NCBI RefSeq assembly: GCF_056746865.1
Contig: NZ_CM163382.1
Reading direction: 5' to 3' (one strand)
DNA: 64,000 nt
The notes beneath the pieces were generated by a model. That model saw only the letters and a list, made by a program, of their open reading frames with translations, was not told the origin of the DNA and ran no database searches. Of this stretch, positions 2,442 to 15,977 are shown piece after piece (positions within the stretch are counted from its first letter, which is position 1; the number at the start of each line of letters is the position of its first letter). Made by a program: the position numbers and the translations under genes.

Positions 2442-2957
2442 ATGAGAAGAGTGCTCTTTAGCTGTTTCTGCGGGCTACTGTGGAGTTCCAGTGGATGGGC
2501 AGTTGACCCTTTAGGAACGATTAATATCAATTTGCACGGTAACGTTGTTGATTTCTCCTGTACCGTAAACACAGCGGATATTGATAAGACGGTAGATTTA
2601 GGCAGATGGCCTACGACACAACTACTGACCGCTGGCGATACCACGGCACTCGTCCCTTTTAGCCTGCGGCTGGAGGGATGTCCTCCGGGTTCAGTCGCGA
2701 TTTTATTTACGGGAACGCCGGCATCCGATACCAATCTGCTGGCTCTGGATGATCCCGCAATGGCACAAACCGTCGCCATCGAATTACGTAATAGCGATCG
2801 CTCCCGGCTCGCACTGGGGGAGGCGAGCCCGACTGAGGAAGTAGATGCAAATGGCAATGTCACACTAAACTTTTTTGCCAATTATCGAGCGTTAGCCAGC
2901 GGTGTTCAGCCAGGTGTGGCGAAAGCGGATGCGATATTTATGATCAATTATAATTAA
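2442..2957 (+). CDS. sfmF: minor fimbrial subunit
   Basis: ATG at 2442 preceded by GGAG; 171-aa product with signal peptide; longer ORF 2247-2957 rejected as upstream extension. Confidence 0.8.
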   Translation: MRRVLFSCFCGLLWSSSGWAVDPLGTININLHGNVVDFSCTVNTADIDKTVDLGRWPTTQLLTAGDTTALVPFSLRLEGCPPGSVAILFTGTPASDTNLLALDDPAMAQTVAIELRNSDRSRLALGEASPTEEVDANGNVTLNFFANYRALASGVQPGVAKADAIFMINYN

Positions 2958-2959
2958 TA

Positions 2960-3592
2960 TTATATTAATTCATATAATTTGGCGTAGTCGATAAGCTCTA
3001 CAATTGAATGCAATCCTAGCTTGCCATAAATATTAGATTTATGCGCACTAACTGTTTTATTGCTAAGTAATAACTTATCGGCAATTTCTTTATTAGATAA
3101 TCCGCTGACCAGATAACGTAATATCGTCACTTCACGATTAGATAGCACAGTGATCGTTGAACTATTCGTGCTACATTTATTGCTTTTTATATAGTTGAGC
3201 GTTTCGCTGGGAAAAAAAGTGTATCCGGAGAGGATCATCTGAACGGCATGAAAAATATCATTCTGATCATTGCATTTACTGACAAAACCGTTAGCACCAG
3301 CTTGTATCGCTCTGCCAGCATAAAAGCATTCTGATTTCGATGATAAAAATAATACTTTCACTGTGCTCTGGATTTGTTTGATCCTTTTCAGGAAGGTAAA
3401 ACCGTCTGTTCCGGGCAAGTCTATATCCATAATGATTAAATCAACAGGACGGGTTCGGAGATAATCGATGGTTATGCGATAATCATCCGTTTTCAGGACA
3501 ATTTGCAATTCACTGTTTTTTTGCAACAGAACTTCAATAGACATTCTGATGATAGGATGAGTATCCATAATGATCACCGACGTTGGTTTCAT
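2960..3592 (-). CDS. fimZ: LuxR-family two-component response regulator
   Basis: Start taken at MKPTSVIIMD (receiver domain with DLIIMDIDLPGTDG) and C-terminal LuxR HTH; ORF track gives a longer upstream extension. Confidence 0.85.
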   Translation of the reverse strand: MKPTSVIIMDTHPIIRMSIEVLLQKNSELQIVLKTDDYRITIDYLRTRPVDLIIMDIDLPGTDGFTFLKRIKQIQSTVKVLFLSSKSECFYAGRAIQAGANGFVSKCNDQNDIFHAVQMILSGYTFFPSETLNYIKSNKCSTNSSTITVLSNREVTILRYLVSGLSNKEIADKLLLSNKTVSAHKSNIYGKLGLHSIVELIDYAKLYELI

Positions 3593-3834
3593 AGTTACCA
3601 GTCTCATAGGATCGGACAATTTTCCGTTAGGGCGGGAAATTGTACTTTGATACATGAAAATACGGGTTTTCTTGATTCAGACGCGCAGCGGTGTACGTTT
3701 GTTTGCCGCTATAGCGAAATAAATCAGAAAATCAGACGCGGTCGTTCACTTGTTCAGCAACCAGATCAAAAGCCATTGACTCAGCAAGGGTTGACCGTAT
3801 AATTCACGCGATTACACCGCATTGCGGTATCAAC

Positions 3835-3911
3835 GCGCCCTTAGCTCAGTTGGATAGAGCAACGACCTTCTAAGTCGTGGGCCGCAGGTTCGAATCCTGC
3901 AGGGCGCGCCA
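3835..3911 (+). tRNA. argU: tRNA-Arg (anticodon UCU)
   Basis: 77-nt cloverleaf GCGCCCTTAGCTCAGTTGGATAGAGC...TTCGAATCCTGCAGGGCGCGCCA with UCU anticodon; 3' 45 nt repeated at 50407-50451. Confidence 0.95.
3867..3911 (+). repeat. attL core (3' part of argU)
   Basis: 45-bp sequence cttctaagtcgtgggccgcaggttcgaatcctgcagggcgcgcca repeated at 50407-50451; integrase gene adjacent. Confidence 0.85.
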
Positions 3912-3926
3912 TTACAATTCAATCAG

Positions 3927-5090
3927 TTACGCCTTCTTTATATCCTCCATAATTCCAGAGTGGGACATATTTGGGACATTATCACCAAAAATGTCGTCTA
4001 TTTTCCTCGCATGCTCTGTCAAATGATTAGGCGCAAGGTGAGCATACCTACGAACCATTTCTATGGACTCCCATCCGCCCATTTCCTGAAGCACTGATAA
4101 TGGGACGCCTGACTGAATCAGCCAGCTTGCCCAGGTGTGTCTGAGGTCATGGAAACGGAAATCTTCAATTCCTGCACGACGACAAGCTGATAGCCATGAT
4201 GTCTTGCTGTCGATGCGCATCTTCCTGACCGCAGGCGTTGATGTTCCATCTGCTCGCTTAGCCGCCTTGGTATGTACAAACACCCATTTGTGATGCTTGC
4301 CTATTTGATCACGCAACACTTTACAGGCGGTATCGTTCAGCGCCACACCAATGGCGCGGTTTGATTTGCTCTCTTCTGGATTCACCCAGGCAACTCGTCG
4401 CTGCATGTCGATTTGTTGCCATTCCAGATTTATGATGTTCGACTTTCTCAGACCAGTTGCCAGCGCAAACTTGACGACAGATTTCAGTGGTTCGGGGCAC
4501 TCATCAATAAGGCGTTTTGCTTCCTCCTTTTCCAGCCATCTGACTCGCTTGTTTCTGACCGCTGGTATCTTGATGACAGGCGCTTTTTCCAGCCACTTCC
4601 AGTCGCGTTCTGCAGCACGGAGAATGGCCTTTATCATGGCAAGATGCTTTGCCTTTGTCTGAGTTGATACTGGCTTTGGTTCATAAACAGGCAGTTCTTT
4701 ACCTTTCCTGATGGCGGCCTGAACTTTCTGTTTCCATATTTCTTTCGTCTTTCTGTTATGCATTCTGCTTACAGCAGAGTAAATCTTTGCCTCCGAGATA
4801 TCTTTAAGCCTTATACCCTCAAAATGTTCAAGCCAGAACTCAATCCGGCTTTTATCTGAATCGAGAGATTTTTTATCAGCTTTTTCCTCAAGCCATCTTA
4901 GGCAGGCCTCTTCAAAAGTGACATCAGGTAAATCCCCTAGCTTTTCTACTCGCCAGAGTTCTGCTTTTCGCTTGTCGTGCAACTCCTGAGCTTGCCGCTT
5001 GTCCTTTGTGCCAAGAGATTCCTTAATTCGTTTCCCGCCCGGGAGCGAATACGAGGCATACCATATTTCATTTCTGCGGAAGAGTGACAT
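3927..5090 (-). CDS. intD: tyrosine recombinase / prophage integrase (argU-site type)
   Basis: 387-aa ORF with C-terminal catalytic region (HDLRHTWAS...RYAH) immediately next to tRNA attL. Confidence 0.9.
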
Positions 5091-5317
5091 TTTCTTTCCT
5101 CTGTTATGCCATCACCCGCGCTCACCTGGACAGTATGCAGCGGAGACTGAAGCGCCGCAATGCAGGCTTGCCGTGTTGTGAGGTAAGGAGATTTTGGCTT
5201 GGTTGGATCTTTACGTGTTGCCTGTAGGCGGCCTGTTCGTATCCAGTTGGTGGCGGTTGGTCTGGATATCTTAAGAAACTGACAGGCCTCATCGAGTGTG
5301 AGGCTGTATGATTCCAT
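4946..5317 (-). CDS. xis: excisionase / AlpA-like HTH DNA-binding protein
   Basis: HTH segment [26 protein letters not shown]; overlaps int start; exact start and extent uncertain. Confidence 0.5.
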
Positions 5318-7247: not shown

Positions 7248-8029
7248 GCTGCCACCTTCTGCTCAGTGGCTTTCTGTTTCAGGAATCCAAGAGCTTTCAC
7301 TGCTTCGGCCTGTGTCAGTTCTGACGATGCGCGAATGTCGCGGCGAAATATCTGGGAACAGAGCGGCAATAAGTCGTCATCCCATGTTTTATCCAGGGCG
7401 ATCAGCAGAGTGTTAATCTCCTGCATGGTTTCATCGTTAACCGGAGTGATGTCGCGTTCCGGCTGACGTTCTGCAGTGTATGCGGTATTTTCGACAATGC
7501 GCTCGGCTTCATCCTTGTCATAGATACCAGCAAATCCGAAGGCCAGACGGGCACACTGAATCATGGCTTTATGACGTAACATCCGTTTGGGATGCGACTG
7601 CCACGGTCCGGTGATTTCTCTGCCTTCGCGGGTTTTGAATGGTTCGCGGCGGCATTCATCCATCCACTCGGTAACGCAGATCGGATGATTGCGGTCCTTG
7701 CGGTAAATCCGGCATGTGCAGGATTCATTGTCCTGCTCAAAGTCCATACCATCAAACTGCTGGTTTTCATTGATGATGCGGGACCAGCCATCAACGCCCA
7801 CCACCGGAACGATGCCATTCTGCTTATCAGGAAAGGCGTAAATTTCTTTCGTCCATGGATTAAGGCCGTACTGGTTGGCAACGATCAGTAATGCGATGAA
7901 CTGCGCATCGCTGGCATCACCTTTAAATGCCGTCTGGCGAAGAGTGGTGATCAGTTCCTGTGGGTCGACAGAATCCATGCCGACACGTTCAGCCAGCTTC
8001 CCTGCCAGCGTTGCGAGTGCTGTACTCAT
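7244..8029 (-). CDS. bet: recombination protein Bet (Red beta)
   Basis: 261-aa product recognised as lambda Bet; 4-bp overlap with exo. Confidence 0.95.
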
Positions 8030-8034
8030 CCGTT

Positions 8035-8331
8035 TTATACCTCTGAATCAATATCAACCTGGTGGTGAGCAATGGTTTCAACCATGTACCGGATGTGTTC
8101 TGCCATGCGCTCCTGAAACTCAACATCGTCATCAAACGCACGGGTAATGGCTTTTTTGCTGGCCCCGTGGCGTTGCAAATGATCGATGCATAGCGATTCA
8201 AACAGGTGCTGGGGCAGGCCTTTTTCCATGTCGTCTGCCAGTTCTGCCTCTTTCTCTTCACGGGCGATCTGCTGGTAGTGACGCGCCCAGCTCTGAGCCT
8301 CAAGACGATCCTGAATGTAATAAGCGTTCAT
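8035..8331 (-). CDS. gam: RecBCD inhibitor Gam (98-aa short form)
   Basis: [21 protein letters not shown]... matches lambda GamS. Confidence 0.9.
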
Positions 8332-8406
8332 GGCTGAACTCCTGAAAATGGCTGTGAAAAAATCGCCCGCGGAATGCCAGGCTGATTCGGAAAACAGGAA
8401 AGGGGA

Positions 8407-8697
8407 TTAGTGATTCAGACCGTTGCCGCGTCCGTCGAGAAAAACTTCCACGAGCAAGTCACGGGTATAAGTGCGCTCAATGCCGCGATGCAGATAAAGT
8501 CGTCCGCGTAAATTAGCTGATGCAGTCCAGGTACCATCTTTGCGTTTGACCAGCATTCCTGGCATGACCGCACCGCGATTAACGGTCTGCGTTCCGTAAT
8601 GTTGATGAACCATAAAAACTCCTGCCCGTAAGCTGGGCTGCTGAACATATAAAGACTTCTGCGCGTATTCAGGCGGTGGATGGCCGCCGGTTGTCAT
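8407..8697 (-). CDS. hypothetical protein, first gene of leftward early operon
   Basis: 96-aa ORF directly downstream of the putative pL/OL region; an alternative 77-aa frame (8415-8648) overlaps. Confidence 0.35.
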   Translation of the reverse strand: MTTGGHPPPEYAQKSLYVQQPSLRAGVFMVHQHYGTQTVNRGAVMPGMLVKRKDGTWTASANLRGRLYLHRGIERTYTRDLLVEVFLDGRGNGLNH

Positions 8698-8879
8698 AAC
8701 TAAGCCGCCTCGTTGAAGCGACTAAGGTATGAAATGTTGAGTTGATTTCAGCTGGTCACACCGACGTTCACGCGTCCGTTTCATCCCTCGCACTCCCCGA
8801 AGCCTGCTGAAATTCAAGCTGCGGATCTAAGCGGTCATCGCAACGGTGAATCAGGTAGTTGCCGTATCGTTGTGTTGTT

Positions 8880-8960
8880 GCGATGAACTTATTTAAAACT
8901 ATAGTTGTTTTATCGTCAACAACAAAAGTTGTTTTATTGGTTGTTTTAGATATAACTGGT
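8880..8960 (-). promoter_or_regulatory. leftward early promoter/operator region (pL/OL analogue)
   Basis: Palindromes GTTGTTTTATCGTCAACAAC and AACAACAAAAGTTGTT overlapping a minus-strand TTGACG-17-TTAAAT promoter-like sequence. Confidence 0.55.
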
Positions 8961-9054
8961 TGTATTTAGGATGGATTTATTTTGTGACTTGAATCGCATA
9001 GCGATAACTGAAGCGAGGTTATGGTGGTTTTTTTAACGGTGTGTGTGATGAGGG

Positions 9055-9087
9055 GAGGGCAAAAGAAAACCCGGCACGGTGGCCGGG
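9055..9087 (-). terminator. rho-independent terminator closing the repressor operon
   Basis: Minus-strand stem CCCGGC-CACCGT-GCCGGG followed by TTTTCTTTT, 9 bp past the stop of the 310-aa gene. Confidence 0.7.
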
Positions 9088-9095
9088 TAGCATCA

Positions 9096-10028
9096 CTATT
9101 CGATTTTTTTAACCATGTAGTTACGTCGTGATGTTCCTAATCTTTCATTGTGAATCTCAGAAACGCTTACTACGAGCGATATTCGTTCACCAACTTTATA
9201 TTTACTTTGAATTTCTCCTAACATATCAATCGGATAAGAAGCCTTTATTTTTCCAAGCTCGCTTGCAATCTCCAATTTCCCGTACATGGATAAAATAGCA
9301 AGTTCGCCTGATATATGCTCATCCGGTAGCTGAATGACCTTCGTTAAAGCTAAGCGAGCATTCAGTTTTTTTATATCTTCTGAAGAAATTGACACTTGTC
9401 TGGTACCATCACTTAAAGGTCCAATCCAAGTAAGATCAAAGTTAAGACTATATTTTTCGCACTCATTTATGATGTTTTTTAGGTTAGCTGTTGATTGCGA
9501 ACCAATTTCGGCAATTTTAGCCGTGAATGTTTCTTCATCAATGGATGAGAGTAGTGCAAAAATCTCCTTAACAGCATGACTGGATACTGTTTCGATGAGC
9601 TCGCAAGAACCAGTAGAAAAAGTAACACCTAACTTCGTCGAACCTGGACGCAAGTCTGCCAATCTCATGTCTAATGATTTTTTAACATCAATCGGCACAC
9701 GACTAGAATCTTTCCCAGATCCAAGTCGGTAAACTGCTTTCTGTACAAGGGATGCGAGATTACCTGAAATTACAGATAGAATATCTAACGGAATAGACCC
9801 GAAATCGACCAAAACACCTTTTAATCTCAACTCCATGAAATCACGTAAAGGATGTTGGTTATCGATTGCACGTTGTCTCTCTCGGAGATCGCTCAGATGG
9901 GAGTCAAGTGATCTAAATATAATGTCATCAGCAAATGATCTCCCCTTATTTTGAGCAAGCAGATCCACATCGCGTTGAATGAACGCAATTCGCTCCTTGA
10001 GGGAGTTGAATGTTTTTTCTTCGCTCAT
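9096..10028 (-). CDS. hypothetical 310-aa protein, second gene of repressor-linked cargo operon
   Basis: AT-rich ORF, start overlaps upstream gene stop by 4 bp; no recognisable motif; occupies the rexAB-equivalent position. Confidence 0.7.
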   Translation of the reverse strand: MSEEKTFNSLKERIAFIQRDVDLLAQNKGRSFADDIIFRSLDSHLSDLRERQRAIDNQHPLRDFMELRLKGVLVDFGSIPLDILSVISGNLASLVQKAVYRLGSGKDSSRVPIDVKKSLDMRLADLRPGSTKLGVTFSTGSCELIETVSSHAVKEIFALLSSIDEETFTAKIAEIGSQSTANLKNIINECEKYSLNFDLTWIGPLSDGTRQVSISSEDIKKLNARLALTKVIQLPDEHISGELAILSMYGKLEIASELGKIKASYPIDMLGEIQSKYKVGERISLVVSVSEIHNERLGTSRRNYMVKKIE

Positions 10029-10498
10029 AACATTACCCTCACGAGGCCTTTAGGATTCTCCTTCCGATCAAAACCAAACCACCCTCTCCAGTAACTTCGC
10101 CTTTCACTATAATCGATTTCTGGATGATTTTCAGGCAGCAAAAGAACGTCAATGCTGTAGTTTTCTTTAATAAAATCTCTATTTAACAATGAGCTGACCA
10201 ATGGCATCAGCGTGTTTGGCAAAGAGTTTAGGGCCAAATAATCGACGACCACGAGTATATCTATGTCATCAGGTTCAGGTTTCTCTGTAGTGAATGAACC
10301 ATCGATCCACACTTCAGAGAAACATAGACACTGCTGATTAACAAGTTTAAATTGCTCAATAAGCTGTATAAAATTACAGTATAGCATACTTCTTCTAACG
10401 GATTTTGGGAAGGTGTCGACACAAAGAGACTTGATGCCATCACTATCCATATCATGAAATCCTGCTGTAAGAAGAGGTGGGAAGCTAGGCTTTTCCAT
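10025..10498 (-). CDS. nucleotidyltransferase-fold (minimal NTase-like) protein, first gene of cargo operon
   Basis: Motif WIDGSFTTEKPEPDDIDILVVVD fits the G-S...D-x-D signature of Pol-beta-type NTases; 82 bp downstream of cI on same strand. Confidence 0.65.
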   Translation of the reverse strand: MEKPSFPPLLTAGFHDMDSDGIKSLCVDTFPKSVRRSMLYCNFIQLIEQFKLVNQQCLCFSEVWIDGSFTTEKPEPDDIDILVVVDYLALNSLPNTLMPLVSSLLNRDFIKENYSIDVLLLPENHPEIDYSERRSYWRGWFGFDRKENPKGLVRVML

Positions 10499-10579
10499 CC
10501 TAAGTCCTTGTTTATGCCATATAGTGTTCTATTTAATATTCTTGAAAAGAGTGTGCCTTAAAAAGCTACAGGCTAATTA

Positions 10580-11269
10580 TTAACCATGCTTCCTGTACGT
10601 CTGCGGCATGCTCCCAATAACCTTACCGAAGATGAACACCCGGTTCATCTCGTCTTTCTCGATCGGGTCCCACGGTGAGTAGCTTTTGTTATCAGAGATG
10701 ACCAGCAGCTTATCCTTCATCATTTGCAGGCGCTTTACATGGGCTGTGTCGTCGTACAGAAACGCATAGATACCATCACCGTCGAAAGATTTAACTGTGA
10801 TATCAACGAACAGCAGATCACCTGGTTCGATCGTTCCTGACATGCTGTCACCACGCACGTTAATGATGCGGATATTTTCCGCCTTCCTACCATCGAACAT
10901 GTGACGAGCATCGTCAAACGAGTACTCAACCGAGCGTAGAACTTCTACAAACTCACGGTTGATGACTCCCGGCCCAGCACTGACTTCTATATCAAGAACG
11001 TCAATCTTGAAGTATTTGGAATGGCTGACAGTTGATTGTATTGGTTGCACTGTACTGTCTGACATATTTCCAACGCCAGAAGATAACCATTCTGCGCGCA
11101 CACCCAAAGCGTTCGCGATCTCCACGATTTTAGTTGTTTGATTAGCTTTCCCTGTTTCGATTTTCTGAATAGCAGCCTGGCTAACCCCGACCAAATCCCC
11201 AAGCGCCTTTTGTGTAAGGCCTCGCGCTAATCTGGCTTCTTTAAGTCTTTCTGAGAGTGTTGTTTTCAT
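10580..11269 (-). CDS. CI-type prophage repressor (HTH_XRE plus S24 LexA-like peptidase domain)
   Basis: Start at MKTTLSERLKEARLARGLTQKALG; C-terminal GDSMSGTIEPGDLLFVD...KRL autocleavage-domain pattern; divergent from cro-like gene. Confidence 0.85.
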   Translation of the reverse strand: MKTTLSERLKEARLARGLTQKALGDLVGVSQAAIQKIETGKANQTTKIVEIANALGVRAEWLSSGVGNMSDSTVQPIQSTVSHSKYFKIDVLDIEVSAGPGVINREFVEVLRSVEYSFDDARHMFDGRKAENIRIINVRGDSMSGTIEPGDLLFVDITVKSFDGDGIYAFLYDDTAHVKRLQMMKDKLLVISDNKSYSPWDPIEKDEMNRVFIFGKVIGSMPQTYRKHG

Positions 11270-11373
11270 AGTCCAAATGTACAACCAAGGTTTTATTCCA
11301 TCAAACGAAAATGGTTGTTGACTAAAAACAACCATAGTTTTAATCTTGATTCAAATTAACCACGGAGGTTGTT
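11270..11373. promoter_or_regulatory. OR-like operator/promoter region between repressor and cro-like gene
   Basis: Palindrome ATGGTTGTTGACTAAAAACAACCAT overlapping a rightward TTGACT -35; GGAGG RBS before cro-like ATG. Confidence 0.6.
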
Positions 11374-11604
11374 ATGAACCCAGCTATCAAAACAGCGATC
11401 AATATCGTTGGTTCACAAAAGAAACTGGGCGCTGCTTGCGAAGTTTCACAGCAGGCCGTCTATAAGTGGCTTCACAACAAAGCAAAGGTATCCCCTGAAC
11501 ATGTCGGCAGCATTGTTACGGCTACTGGTGGAGTAGTGAAGGCATACCAGATTCGCCCGGATCTTCCGAAGTTGTTTCCACACACCGAAAAGAACGCAGC
11601 TTAA
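11374..11604 (+). CDS. Cro/YdaS-like small DNA-binding regulator
   Basis: 76-aa product, divergently transcribed from repressor; resembles Rac YdaS-type cro analogues. Confidence 0.65.
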   Translation: MNPAIKTAINIVGSQKKLGAACEVSQQAVYKWLHNKAKVSPEHVGSIVTATGGVVKAYQIRPDLPKLFPHTEKNAA

Positions 11605-11673
11605 ATTTCCATTTCACGCTCTTTAACAATAAGCAATCAACTTAACAGTCAATTCAAACTAAAGGAGTCAATT

Positions 11674-12213
11674 ATGCAACCACTTCCATACCAACAGACT
11701 AGCGGATTTAGCCCGACTGCGGTGATAAATCGTTCTCAAACAAAACAGGTGCCAGGCCACGAAAAAATCCGTGATGCCGTCCGCGCCTGGTCGGCTGTAG
11801 ATAATCAGGATGTCGTTGCCACACTCATTGTGAATGAGTATCGGGAGCAGGGCGGCGGCACCATCGATTTCCCTGATGATGTCAGCCGTGCACGCCAGAA
11901 GCTGTTCCGCTTCCTCGATAACAAATTCGATTCTGAAAAATACCGAAATAACGTGCGTGAACTGACCCCGGCAATTCTGGCGGTACTACCGCTGGAATAT
12001 CGCGGTTACCTGGTTGAGCAGGATAGCTTCATGGCTAGGTTGGCTGAAATGGAAAAGGAACTCAGTGAGGCAAAACAGGCTGTCATTCTCAACGCACCAC
12101 GCCACCAGAAACTGAAGGAAATTAGTGAAGGTATTGTATCGATGTTTCGTGTGGACCCAGATCTGGCTGGTCCATTGATGGCGATGGTTACTACCATGCT
12201 GGGGGCGATATGA
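11674..12213 (+). CDS. YdaT-like protein (CII position)
   Basis: 179-aa ORF after cro-like gene; sequence pattern reminiscent of Rac YdaT family. Confidence 0.45.
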   Translation: MQPLPYQQTSGFSPTAVINRSQTKQVPGHEKIRDAVRAWSAVDNQDVVATLIVNEYREQGGGTIDFPDDVSRARQKLFRFLDNKFDSEKYRNNVRELTPAILAVLPLEYRGYLVEQDSFMARLAEMEKELSEAKQAVILNAPRHQKLKEISEGIVSMFRVDPDLAGPLMAMVTTMLGAI

Positions 12214-14474: not shown

Positions 14475-15977
14475 TTAAATTGCATCTGCAAACTCTGGGG
14501 TTTTTCGCTCAGGTATAATTGATGAGTTGCTGTTGTCACTTTTTTTATTTTCATGATTACGAATAGCCAATGACTCATTAAAGTCTTTTGCGACTGCTGT
14601 CTCAATAAATTCAATTTCTGAATCAGAGTGTTTTTTAACAGCTTCTTTGATCTCATCCAGAGTAACATAGAAAAACTCTTTTCTACGATTTACAAGATTG
14701 ACTCTCTTTTTATCGAAGACATCATGTAGTTTTTTTTCTAATGATGGAGCGTCCTCCGAATAAATCATGGCATGTACATCAAAAATAAAAGGAACAGATG
14801 CATCACCGAGCTCATTTACACGGTCTTGCGGATCAAGACGTCGTGTCATGCCTATTTTATAAACATTCTCCCCAAAAGAACCTATGTTCGAAATAATATA
14901 AACATGACCTTGTTTGGTTTGTTGTGCCATGGATAATGCTCTTTGATGCTTTGATTCAGCCTGCGACAAACTCTGTTCTAGTTCGGCAATGCGATTTTCG
15001 AGGCGCTGCTTCATGTCACCAGTAACTTTTTCCATTTCCTTTCTTGCAGCTTCAATTGCTTTTTTATAACGGCGCTCTTCTGCCTCTGCGTCTTGCATGG
15101 CCTTTTCTATTTCTCGTTGTGCACGCTCCTCCTCTCTCATTTGTGCCCTTATTTCTGCCTGTTCTTCTTTTTCTTTCTGTTTTTGCTCACGATATTCATG
15201 GGTAAGCCACAATTCCTCAAGTTTTTTATTGAGGTATTTAGTGTTTATATATATGTGATTTTGCTCGTTTAGTTTATTTATGGCCTCAAATGCCTTTGTG
15301 ATGCGTTCTTCCATTTTAGTGATGTTTTTCCACGTGCAATTGCTAATTGCAGCATCACATTCATTATTAAATGCTCTAGTAGTTAGCCTGATATTTCTGT
15401 CTGTCATTTTTTTACCCTCTGCTCGAGAGCCTTCAACAGTCCATTGGGTTGTACAATATACTGCGCCAGAGTGGGTTTTATCCCGCAGCATTAATTTCTG
15501 TTCATCCCTGATGGATTTTATTTTGTTTTTAAATTGCTCTGAATCTTCAAAATTAAAATGAGGTTCGTAAAATCCTAGTTCGGCTAGCTCAACATCTTCT
15601 GAATAAATAGAAATTTGCCTTACTAGTTTATCATATATTTCTTTCTTCTCTTTATAAGTTCTTCTTAGCTCTTGGATTTGTTTATTGATACCATCCATTT
15701 TTTCAATGGTGTTTGTTAGTTCATTATTGGCATTTTCTTTTACTTTTAGGGATTCTTCTTTTATTATGGAGCATTCTTGCTCTGTTTTCTCAATAAGCTT
15801 CTTACATTCTTCTTCTACATTAAAATAATCTGCAAAGCGAGATTTGTATTCTTCATTTTTTTGATTGCTATCACTTAATTCTAATTGTATTTTTTTGATG
15901 CGTTTGATTGCAGCTATATAAAGAACAAGAACAACCAATAAAAATATGATTGCAAGTAATAGAGGAGTTTGAGTCAT
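14475..15977 (-). CDS. membrane-anchored coiled-coil protein with C-terminal T5orf172/GIY-YIG-like domain (candidate defence/exclusion gene)
   Basis: N-terminal hydrophobic helix, long K/E-rich coiled coil, C-terminal GHVYIISN...YKIGMTRRLDPQDRVNEL...VPF motif; very AT-rich; opposite strand to surrounding early genes. Confidence 0.75.
   Translation of the reverse strand: MTQTPLLLAIIFLLVVLVLYIAAIKRIKKIQLELSDSNQKNEEYKSRFADYFNVEEECKKLIEKTEQECSIIKEESLKVKENANNELTNTIEKMDGINKQIQELRRTYKEKKEIYDKLVRQISIYSEDVELAELGFYEPHFNFEDSEQFKNKIKSIRDEQKLMLRDKTHSGAVYCTTQWTVEGSRAEGKKMTDRNIRLTTRAFNNECDAAISNCTWKNITKMEERITKAFEAINKLNEQNHIYINTKYLNKKLEELWLTHEYREQKQKEKEEQAEIRAQMREEERAQREIEKAMQDAEAEERRYKKAIEAARKEMEKVTGDMKQRLENRIAELEQSLSQAESKHQRALSMAQQTKQGHVYIISNIGSFGENVYKIGMTRRLDPQDRVNELGDASVPFIFDVHAMIYSEDAPSLEKKLHDVFDKKRVNLVNRRKEFFYVTLDEIKEAVKKHSDSEIEFIETAVAKDFNESLAIRNHENKKSDNSNSSIIPERKTPEFADAI

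Follow-up and report, generated by a model that had tools for sequence, protein, structure and literature searches.

The catalogued candidate defence pair PDC-M63, a putative nucleotidyltransferase and its partner, as mobile cargo in the rexAB-equivalent slot of a lambdoid prophage

Introduction

Several described two-gene modules are built around a nucleotidyltransferase (NTase). In the MNT-HEPN modules of type VII toxin–antitoxin (TA) systems, the NTase gene comes first and is coupled to its partner through an ATGA overlap. In AbiE and MenAT the antitoxin gene precedes the gene of the NTase toxin, and the AbiEii and MenT NTases are toxins that modify tRNA. In the Hailong system, where the HalB NTase accompanies the HalA channel, a DNA ligand made by the NTase can guard an effector (review PMC13276650). 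Here we analyse a two-gene cassette, genes A and B, that lies in the slot occupied in phage lambda by rexA and rexB. The cassette is carried by a prophage in a 64,000-nucleotide stretch of contig NZ_CM163382.1 (RefSeq assembly GCF_056746865.1); this whole stretch is referred to as the window.

The locus has features of more than one of these systems. Its slot is that of lambda RexA/RexB: the genes follow the repressor gene cI within the immunity region, a terminator ends the unit, and transcription in lysogens is plausible. It differs in its content, as neither similarity to a Rex model in PADLOC nor a RexB-like protein with four transmembrane (TM) segments was found at the locus, in line with an original prediction, made from the letters alone, that the two proteins resemble neither RexA nor RexB. 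A full-length CD-NTase (about 300 aa or more) with a cyclic-nucleotide-binding effector, as in CBASS, is likewise absent. The same prediction described an NTase-plus-partner pair that could not be assigned to a named family. On this point it has to be corrected: the pair corresponds to PDC-M63A/B of PADLOC and protein A to Pfam DUF6932. The pair is therefore neither a new candidate nor a new discovery, being already catalogued as PDC-M63.

Results

The locus belongs to the PADLOC candidate PDC-M63

The cassette genes and the repressor gene lie on the minus strand in the order cI, A, B, and the open reading frames (ORFs), including the 4-bp overlap (ATGA) of A and B, are those of the original prediction, in which A was gene 1 (157 aa) and B gene 2 (310 aa). 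The features of the locus are the following.

9088 to 10577, minus strand: mobile cargo cassette (leader, gene A and gene B), 1,490 bp, 38.9% GC, delimited by BLAST breakpoints
10025 to 10498, minus strand: gene A, 157 aa, DUF6932, PADLOC PDC-M63A, RefSeq WP_000414677.1
9096 to 10028, minus strand: gene B, 310 aa, PADLOC PDC-M63B, RefSeq WP_001288169.1
10499 to 10579, minus strand: cI-A spacer, 81 bp, with a Shine–Dalgarno (SD) sequence (AAGGA) and the leader GCATAAA..AAGGA.TTAGG, conserved with the cassette
10580 to 11269, minus strand: cI-like repressor, HTH_3 and Peptidase_S24 domains, PHROG 4 'transcriptional repressor' (E 8.7e-73), WP_000858975.1
9059 to 9088, minus strand: rho-independent terminator closing the cI-A-B unit, a backbone element equivalent to tImm

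Protein A matches the PDC-M63A hidden Markov model (HMM) PDLC04744 with an E-value of 7.4e-43 over residues 1-156 of 157, and protein B matches the PDC-M63B model PDLC04749 (E 4e-42) together with five further PDC-M63B HMMs. Both proteins match over their full length, their genes are adjacent and ordered as in PDC-M63, and nothing differs; by these profile matches the locus is a member of PDC-M63. Otherwise, PADLOC returned no Rex (E<=0.1), AbiE, CBASS or other named system, the only additional hits being weak ones to PDC-M32A and PDC-M02B (E ~0.005-0.01). A second predictor, DefensePredictor, gives WP_001288169.1, which is exactly B, log-odds of ~5.8 and the label 'Predicted novel defense gene' (Table S5 of PMC13092281), and this accession is absent from its Table S6 of tested systems (PMC13092281). 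PDC-M63 is a computational candidate only.

A mobile cassette in a slot with three states

The base composition of the cassette is foreign to its flanks. Its GC content is 38.9%. That of cI is 47%, that of the recombination and replication genes on either side 51-52%, and that of the window as a whole 48.4%. The GC content at third codon positions (0.39 in A and 0.32 in B) is lower than that of the neighbouring genes (0.51-0.62). The original prediction had likewise noted that both genes are richer in AT than the genes on either side.

In BLAST comparisons with the cargo-free phage PhiR34_1 and with PhiR47_2, which has GevTA in the slot, homology breaks at 9087, inside the terminator stem, and at 10578, at the cI stop. 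Because the breakpoint at 9087 falls within the stem, the terminator is part of the phage backbone and not of the cassette. The 34-bp terminator element is found alone in ~200 further complete Escherichia coli genomes without the cassette genes. The full cassette is present in 96 of the 5,426 complete E. coli genomes, every copy with at least 99% identity, and phage genomes in GenBank already carry it.

Three states of the slot were observed, all between flanks with 95-99% identity. PhiR34_1 and Turner have an empty slot (120 bp); in PhiR47_2 (L002, 2595-4023) and IdasGreatGrand it holds the genes of GevT/GevA, which match PADLOC PDC-M11A/B; and in the window and in PhiR30_1 it holds PDC-M63AB. 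Like our pair, GevTA (PDC-M11) is a cargo of two genes bounded by this cI stop and this terminator, in phages whose flanks are at least 95% identical, but its proteins (357 aa and 125 aa) are unrelated to A and B. A literature search found neither a paper on GevTA nor the source paper of the PhiR phage panel.

PhiR30_1 (L001) has the cassette and the C-terminal half of cI in common with the window, and the two diverge from position 11031 onward. This end of homology places a recombination point inside cI, so that the same cargo is joined to a different cI DNA-binding domain and a different operator set. Phage mEpX1 and the Erwinia phage vB_EhrS_59 carry a homologous pair in the interval from cI to N. 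The sequence comparisons thus identify the pair as horizontally mobile accessory cargo in the rexAB-equivalent slot; the breaks at the cI stop and the terminator and the pairs of these two phages uphold the earlier reading of the locus as rexAB-slot cargo.

Protein A has the fold and catalytic residues of a minimal Pol-beta nucleotidyltransferase

Protein A, whose sequence includes WIDGSFTTEKPEPDDIDILVVVD, matches Pfam DUF6932 at 4.8e-26 and a PHROG family at 2e-69, with weak matches to Polbeta and DNA_pol_B_palm. No meaningful NCBIfam model was matched, and searches of the PDB gave no significant sequence match, either with the single sequence or with a profile (none at E<=10 for the profile). 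Its homologues are full-length, the nearest non-identical one at E ~1e-83 and the most distant among the matches listed at ~6e-18. Across 43 homologues, down to 36% identity, residues G67, S68, D78 and D80 never vary, D117 is retained in at least 90%, and a C-terminal motif, SYWRGWFGFDR.E.PKG, is strongly conserved.

The AlphaFold model of A is confident, with a predicted local distance difference test score (pLDDT) of 95.9. Its nearest structures are minimal Pol-beta NTases, among them 1no5, 8xeh_E, 7ae2_B and 5yep_A (the MNT partners of HEPN-MNT systems), and they also include hydroxyl-adenylylating ANT enzymes. Protein A carries the NTase signature hG[GS]-x9-13-DxD and a third acidic residue on an alpha/beta core. 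This fold and the conserved residues G67-S68, D78-x-D80 and D117 support its assignment as a minimal Pol-beta NTase, and the NTase motif first read from the letters is corroborated by Pfam, residue conservation, the AlphaFold model and the structure matches alike. Judged by its residues and its model, A looks enzymatically active. It is a distant, separate NTase family, and no paper mentioning DUF6932 was found by literature search.

Protein B belongs to a widespread family with one invariant serine

Protein B matches PHROG 6603, of unknown function, at 5e-177. Its homologues are full-length, from E ~1e-159 for the nearest non-identical one to ~6e-75 for the most distant among the matches listed. 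The full-length homologues and the PHROG matches of both proteins indicate that A and B are real genes and not chance ORFs. Domain searches with B were empty, in agreement with the earlier observation that the 310-aa protein has no known motif: no Pfam family exceeded the threshold for B alone or for any of 95 homologues, NCBIfam gave nothing meaningful for B and 10 distant homologues, and no significant PDB sequence match was obtained in single-sequence and profile searches.

A full HMMER scan of 1.84 billion representatives placed the B family in 273 clusters at 50% identity, from bacteria and some archaea, the complete members among the matches listed measuring ~300-360 aa. With Foldseek, the model of B gave 642 AFDB50 matches at E<=0.001. 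The best 50 of these 642 are ~275-350 aa long, unnamed save for one domain label, and come from Proteobacteria, Bacteroidota, Firmicutes, Actinobacteria, Planctomycetes and a few archaea.

The model of B is of moderate quality (pLDDT 73.5, with values below 50 at residues 103-118 and 141-149). It consists of an N-terminal helical hairpin, a central mixed domain and a C-terminal barrel (residues ~229-309) that resembles an oligonucleotide/oligosaccharide-binding (OB) fold; with moderate confidence, the C-terminal ~80 aa are modelled as an OB-type barrel. In an alignment of 95 diverse members, S130 is the sole invariant residue, G129 is conserved in 99%, and G77, P80, L81, G176 and W201 are conserved in at least 92%. 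In the model, S130 sits at the hairpin turn between the strands 120-124 and 132-138.

B is a soluble protein with an isoelectric point of 6.6. Hydropathy analysis detected no TM segment in A or B (maximum 19-residue hydropathy 1.26 and 1.54, respectively), which rules out a membrane effector reading of B. A reading of R39-x4-H44 in B as a HEPN motif was also discarded, as these residues are unconserved. Residues 62-148 of B (window ~9585-9845) gave PADLOC matches that were weak (E 0.005-0.01) but consistent, all with the N-terminal end of three PDC-M32A HMMs; B and this other defence candidate could have a domain in common.

Gene A precedes gene B in diverse genomic contexts

The pair is conserved elsewhere, as a co-occurrence survey suggested by the original prediction made clear: in 12 out of 12 distinct contexts complete upstream, a DUF6932 gene lies immediately upstream of the B-family gene. 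The contexts checked were five lambdoid prophages, three isolated phages, two satellite-like elements with a DUF927 primase and two non-enteric chromosomal island-like loci, and further a Pseudoalteromonas Tn3/mer neighbourhood and one metagenomic contig. Two loci were left out as uninformative, L011, which is cut within the upstream gene, and L012, which has no room for a full A. The A/B junction is mostly a 4-bp overlap, with one overlap of 8 bp and one junction whose reading, a 4-bp overlap or a short gap, varies with the gene call. In L012 (JGI Ga0376003_1087, 2623-5242) an inverted AAA_21 gene stands 320 bp away from the B-family gene, and the same AAA gene restarts past B. This locus is the one context that lacks a complete A, and its arrangement probably reflects an inversion or an error of metagenome assembly.

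The pair was also found downstream of unrelated repressor types in four more enterobacterial prophages and in a JGI/Logan prophage (L003/L004). A genome-wide locus scan seeded with the A1 alignment yielded 4 loci. The neighbours of the pair in the satellite-like elements include SocA_Panacea and P22 antirepressor genes. In single further contexts it stands beside a Gp49/HTH TA pair and an MmeI-type enzyme, beside AAA_15/AAA_21 genes, or beside Tn3/mer and a GmrSD_C gene.

A leader of ~25 nt, (T)AGCATAAA..AAGGA.TTAGG-ATG (window 10499-10535), is shared by four enterobacterial cassettes (L005, L008, L016 and L017). Directly 5' of it, L008 and L016 have a CCGCA-GARA-TGCGG hairpin; for pairs that do not follow cI, this hairpin may serve in regulation or as an insulating terminator. 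Outside prophages, A and B must be transcribed from a promoter of their own.

Transcriptional layout of the immunity region

The RefSeq start of cI is at 11269, giving a 229-aa product ('S24 family peptidase'); a longer ORF of 251 aa from 11335 also exists. A promoter and terminator scan of the cI-A spacer detected no terminator-like site and no good sigma-70 promoter, and for this reason the cassette would be read through from the repressor promoter in the lysogen. We infer co-transcription of A and B with cI from this layout. A sigma-70 promoter of the cassette's own in the spacer was considered and rejected, since none passed the scan and the conserved leader resembles an SD region more.

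The strong rho-independent terminator predicted after gene B was located at 9088-9059. It reads ACCCGGC-CACCGT-GCCGGGT followed by TTTCTTTTG, its G+C-rich hairpin, which is followed by a U-tract, begins 7 bases past the B stop, and its fold of -18.3 kcal/mol (z = -3.4) was matched in stability by 0 of 200 shuffled sequences.

One further element lies between the divergent cI and cro genes.

11311 to 11335, no strand assigned: operator-like palindrome (OR), perfect, ATGGTTGTT-N7-AACAACCAT

Its location between these two genes suggests that it is operator-like. It has one exact match in the window, and 0.45 matches are expected by chance at 3 mismatches, so that the statistics are weak. ACAAC/GTTGTT repeats, like those of this palindrome, occur at ~8890-8990, past the terminator, and are followed by kil, gam, bet and exo; from its sequence, ~8890-8990 is a plausible pL/OL-like region. 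No N-like ORF was found between this region and kil (8407-8613), in window 8613-9055. The transcript of 8700-8890 folds near the level of shuffled sequences (z = -1.5), leaving a put-like RNA downstream of pL unsupported, and an Rfam search of window 8000-12000 returned no family.

Other features of the same prophage

Between ren and the nin region, a 500-aa ORF on the minus strand (14475-15977), whose product is named DUF4041 protein in RefSeq, matches PADLOC PD-Lambda-1 at E 2e-198. The membrane nuclease 'SNIPE' contains a DUF4041 domain (bioRxiv 10.1101/2025.11.03.685801). These matches suggest that the prophage carries a second defence moron here. The annotation of E. coli 118UI (L020, 3781-5036) suggests, by analogy, that the prophage occupies the DLP12 site, next to a tRNA-Arg gene and with an intD-type integrase, and has the sfm/fimZ fimbrial genes as neighbours (window ~3835-5090). 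The 118UI annotation also points to an OmpC-type porin gene after Q.

Discussion

The functional reading that we favour, tentatively and with somewhat less than even confidence, is that of a TA/abortive-infection or exclusion module co-transcribed with the repressor, in which A nucleotidylylates B in the manner of type VII systems. What recommends it is that A has intact catalytic residues and MNT antitoxins among its nearest structures, that the genes are strictly paired in a fixed order, and that B has an invariant serine. In the proposed mechanism, A would be an active NTase of the MNT kind that transfers a nucleoside monophosphate (NMP) to a hydroxyl of the translationally coupled B. Ser130, on its hairpin loop, would be the best candidate for the modification site. 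The NMP would keep B inactive until infection upsets the balance, and the freed B might then act through its conserved central domain and its C-terminal OB-like barrel, the latter perhaps binding nucleic acid. Modification of B by A, the effector role of B and an anti-phage phenotype are all predictions of this scheme.

The comparison with HEPN-MNT systems shows both sides of the analogy. As in those modules, A has the minimal Pol-beta fold with hG[GS]...DxD, its nearest structures include MNT antitoxins, and the NTase gene comes first and is translationally coupled. NMP transfer to a protein hydroxyl would, by analogy, fit an invariant serine in B. Unlike HEPN toxins, however, B is not an RNase with the Rx4-6H motif.

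Several observations weigh against the favoured reading. Domain searches and hydropathy disclosed no recognisable toxin, nuclease or membrane domain in B, and the OB assignment of its C-terminus is itself only moderate. Deletion of PDC-M63AB in its native host, E. coli NILS69, left both efficiency of plating and the outcome in liquid culture unchanged for the 10 virulent double-stranded DNA phages that infect the strain (bioRxiv 10.1101/2024.12.20.629700). PDC-M63 appears in one work only in our literature search, and this deletion is the sole experiment found. The original suggestion of a candidate anti-phage system consequently holds in part: the candidate status is strengthened by PADLOC, DefensePredictor and the defence-island or mobile-element contexts in distant taxa, while defence itself stays a prediction whose only test found was negative.

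The pair may instead have no anti-phage function, serving as an addiction module for a mobile element or in the phage life cycle or counter-defence, with the defence-like neighbourhoods reflecting general cargo hotspots. We regard this as rather unlikely, though it accommodates the absence of a phenotype in the NILS69 deletion, the annotation of GevTA, the alternative allele of the slot, as a TA system, and the presence of the cassette on prophages, satellite-like elements and in transposon neighbourhoods. It has to contend with two independent predictors (PADLOC and DefensePredictor) that call defence, with the occurrence of the pair in chromosomal defence-island-like contexts of non-enteric bacteria, and with a slot that is classically the exclusion slot of rexAB; moreover, the negative test covered 10 virulent phages in one strain.

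It is unlikely, in our estimate, that the pair represents an undescribed kind of immune module, deployed from the repressor operon, in which A covalently marks the invariant Ser130 loop of an unrecognised family of ~310-aa effectors or sensors with an OB-like C-terminus, or else makes a ligand for it.

A reversal of roles, with A as the toxin and B as antitoxin, sensor or substrate-recruiting subunit, appears distinctly improbable. In this view A would act like the AbiEii and MenT NTases, attaching a nucleotide to tRNA or to some other target in host or phage, and B would use its OB-like barrel to bind RNA or single-stranded DNA. The existence of tRNA-modifying NTase toxins lends this some appeal, as do the barrel in B, the conserved catalytic residues of A and its basic and aromatic motif SYWRGWFGFDR.E.PKG, which could hold a nucleic-acid end. 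AbiE and MenAT are, moreover, similar to our pair in being two-gene modules with a Pol-beta-fold NTase on mobile elements. Yet A is not DUF1814 and no AbiE model was matched; A is minimal (157 aa), with antitoxin-type MNTs and ANT enzymes as its nearest structures; and B is not of the AbiEi/COG5340 type. The gene order is also reversed relative to AbiE/MenAT, the NTase standing first here and the antitoxin first there, and the gene upstream of A is cI or depends on the context.

Least probable of all, a long shot, is that A makes a short oligonucleotide or nucleotide ligand, constitutively or inducibly, that gates B through its OB-like barrel, as the presence of an NTase beside an OB-like partner and the Hailong precedent (review PMC13276650) might suggest: the pair does resemble Hailong in combining an NTase with a single partner that possibly has a nucleic-acid-binding domain, but B lacks a TM segment and the profile of A reached no PDB sequence at E<=10 (HalB and HalA were not directly compared).

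Returning to the favoured type VII-like reading and to what the locus offers, its present value is one of triage: it is a well-bounded, tractable instance of a catalogued and unvalidated candidate, and worth an experiment. Phages that share these flanks and differ in the slot, which is empty or holds PDC-M63 or GevTA, provide near-isogenic natural controls. Should the pair prove active, a mechanistically uncharacterised and widespread effector family would join the NTase-regulated, type VII-TA-like immune modules, and rexAB would have a second natural counterpart in which a cI operon encodes exclusion expressed in lysogens.

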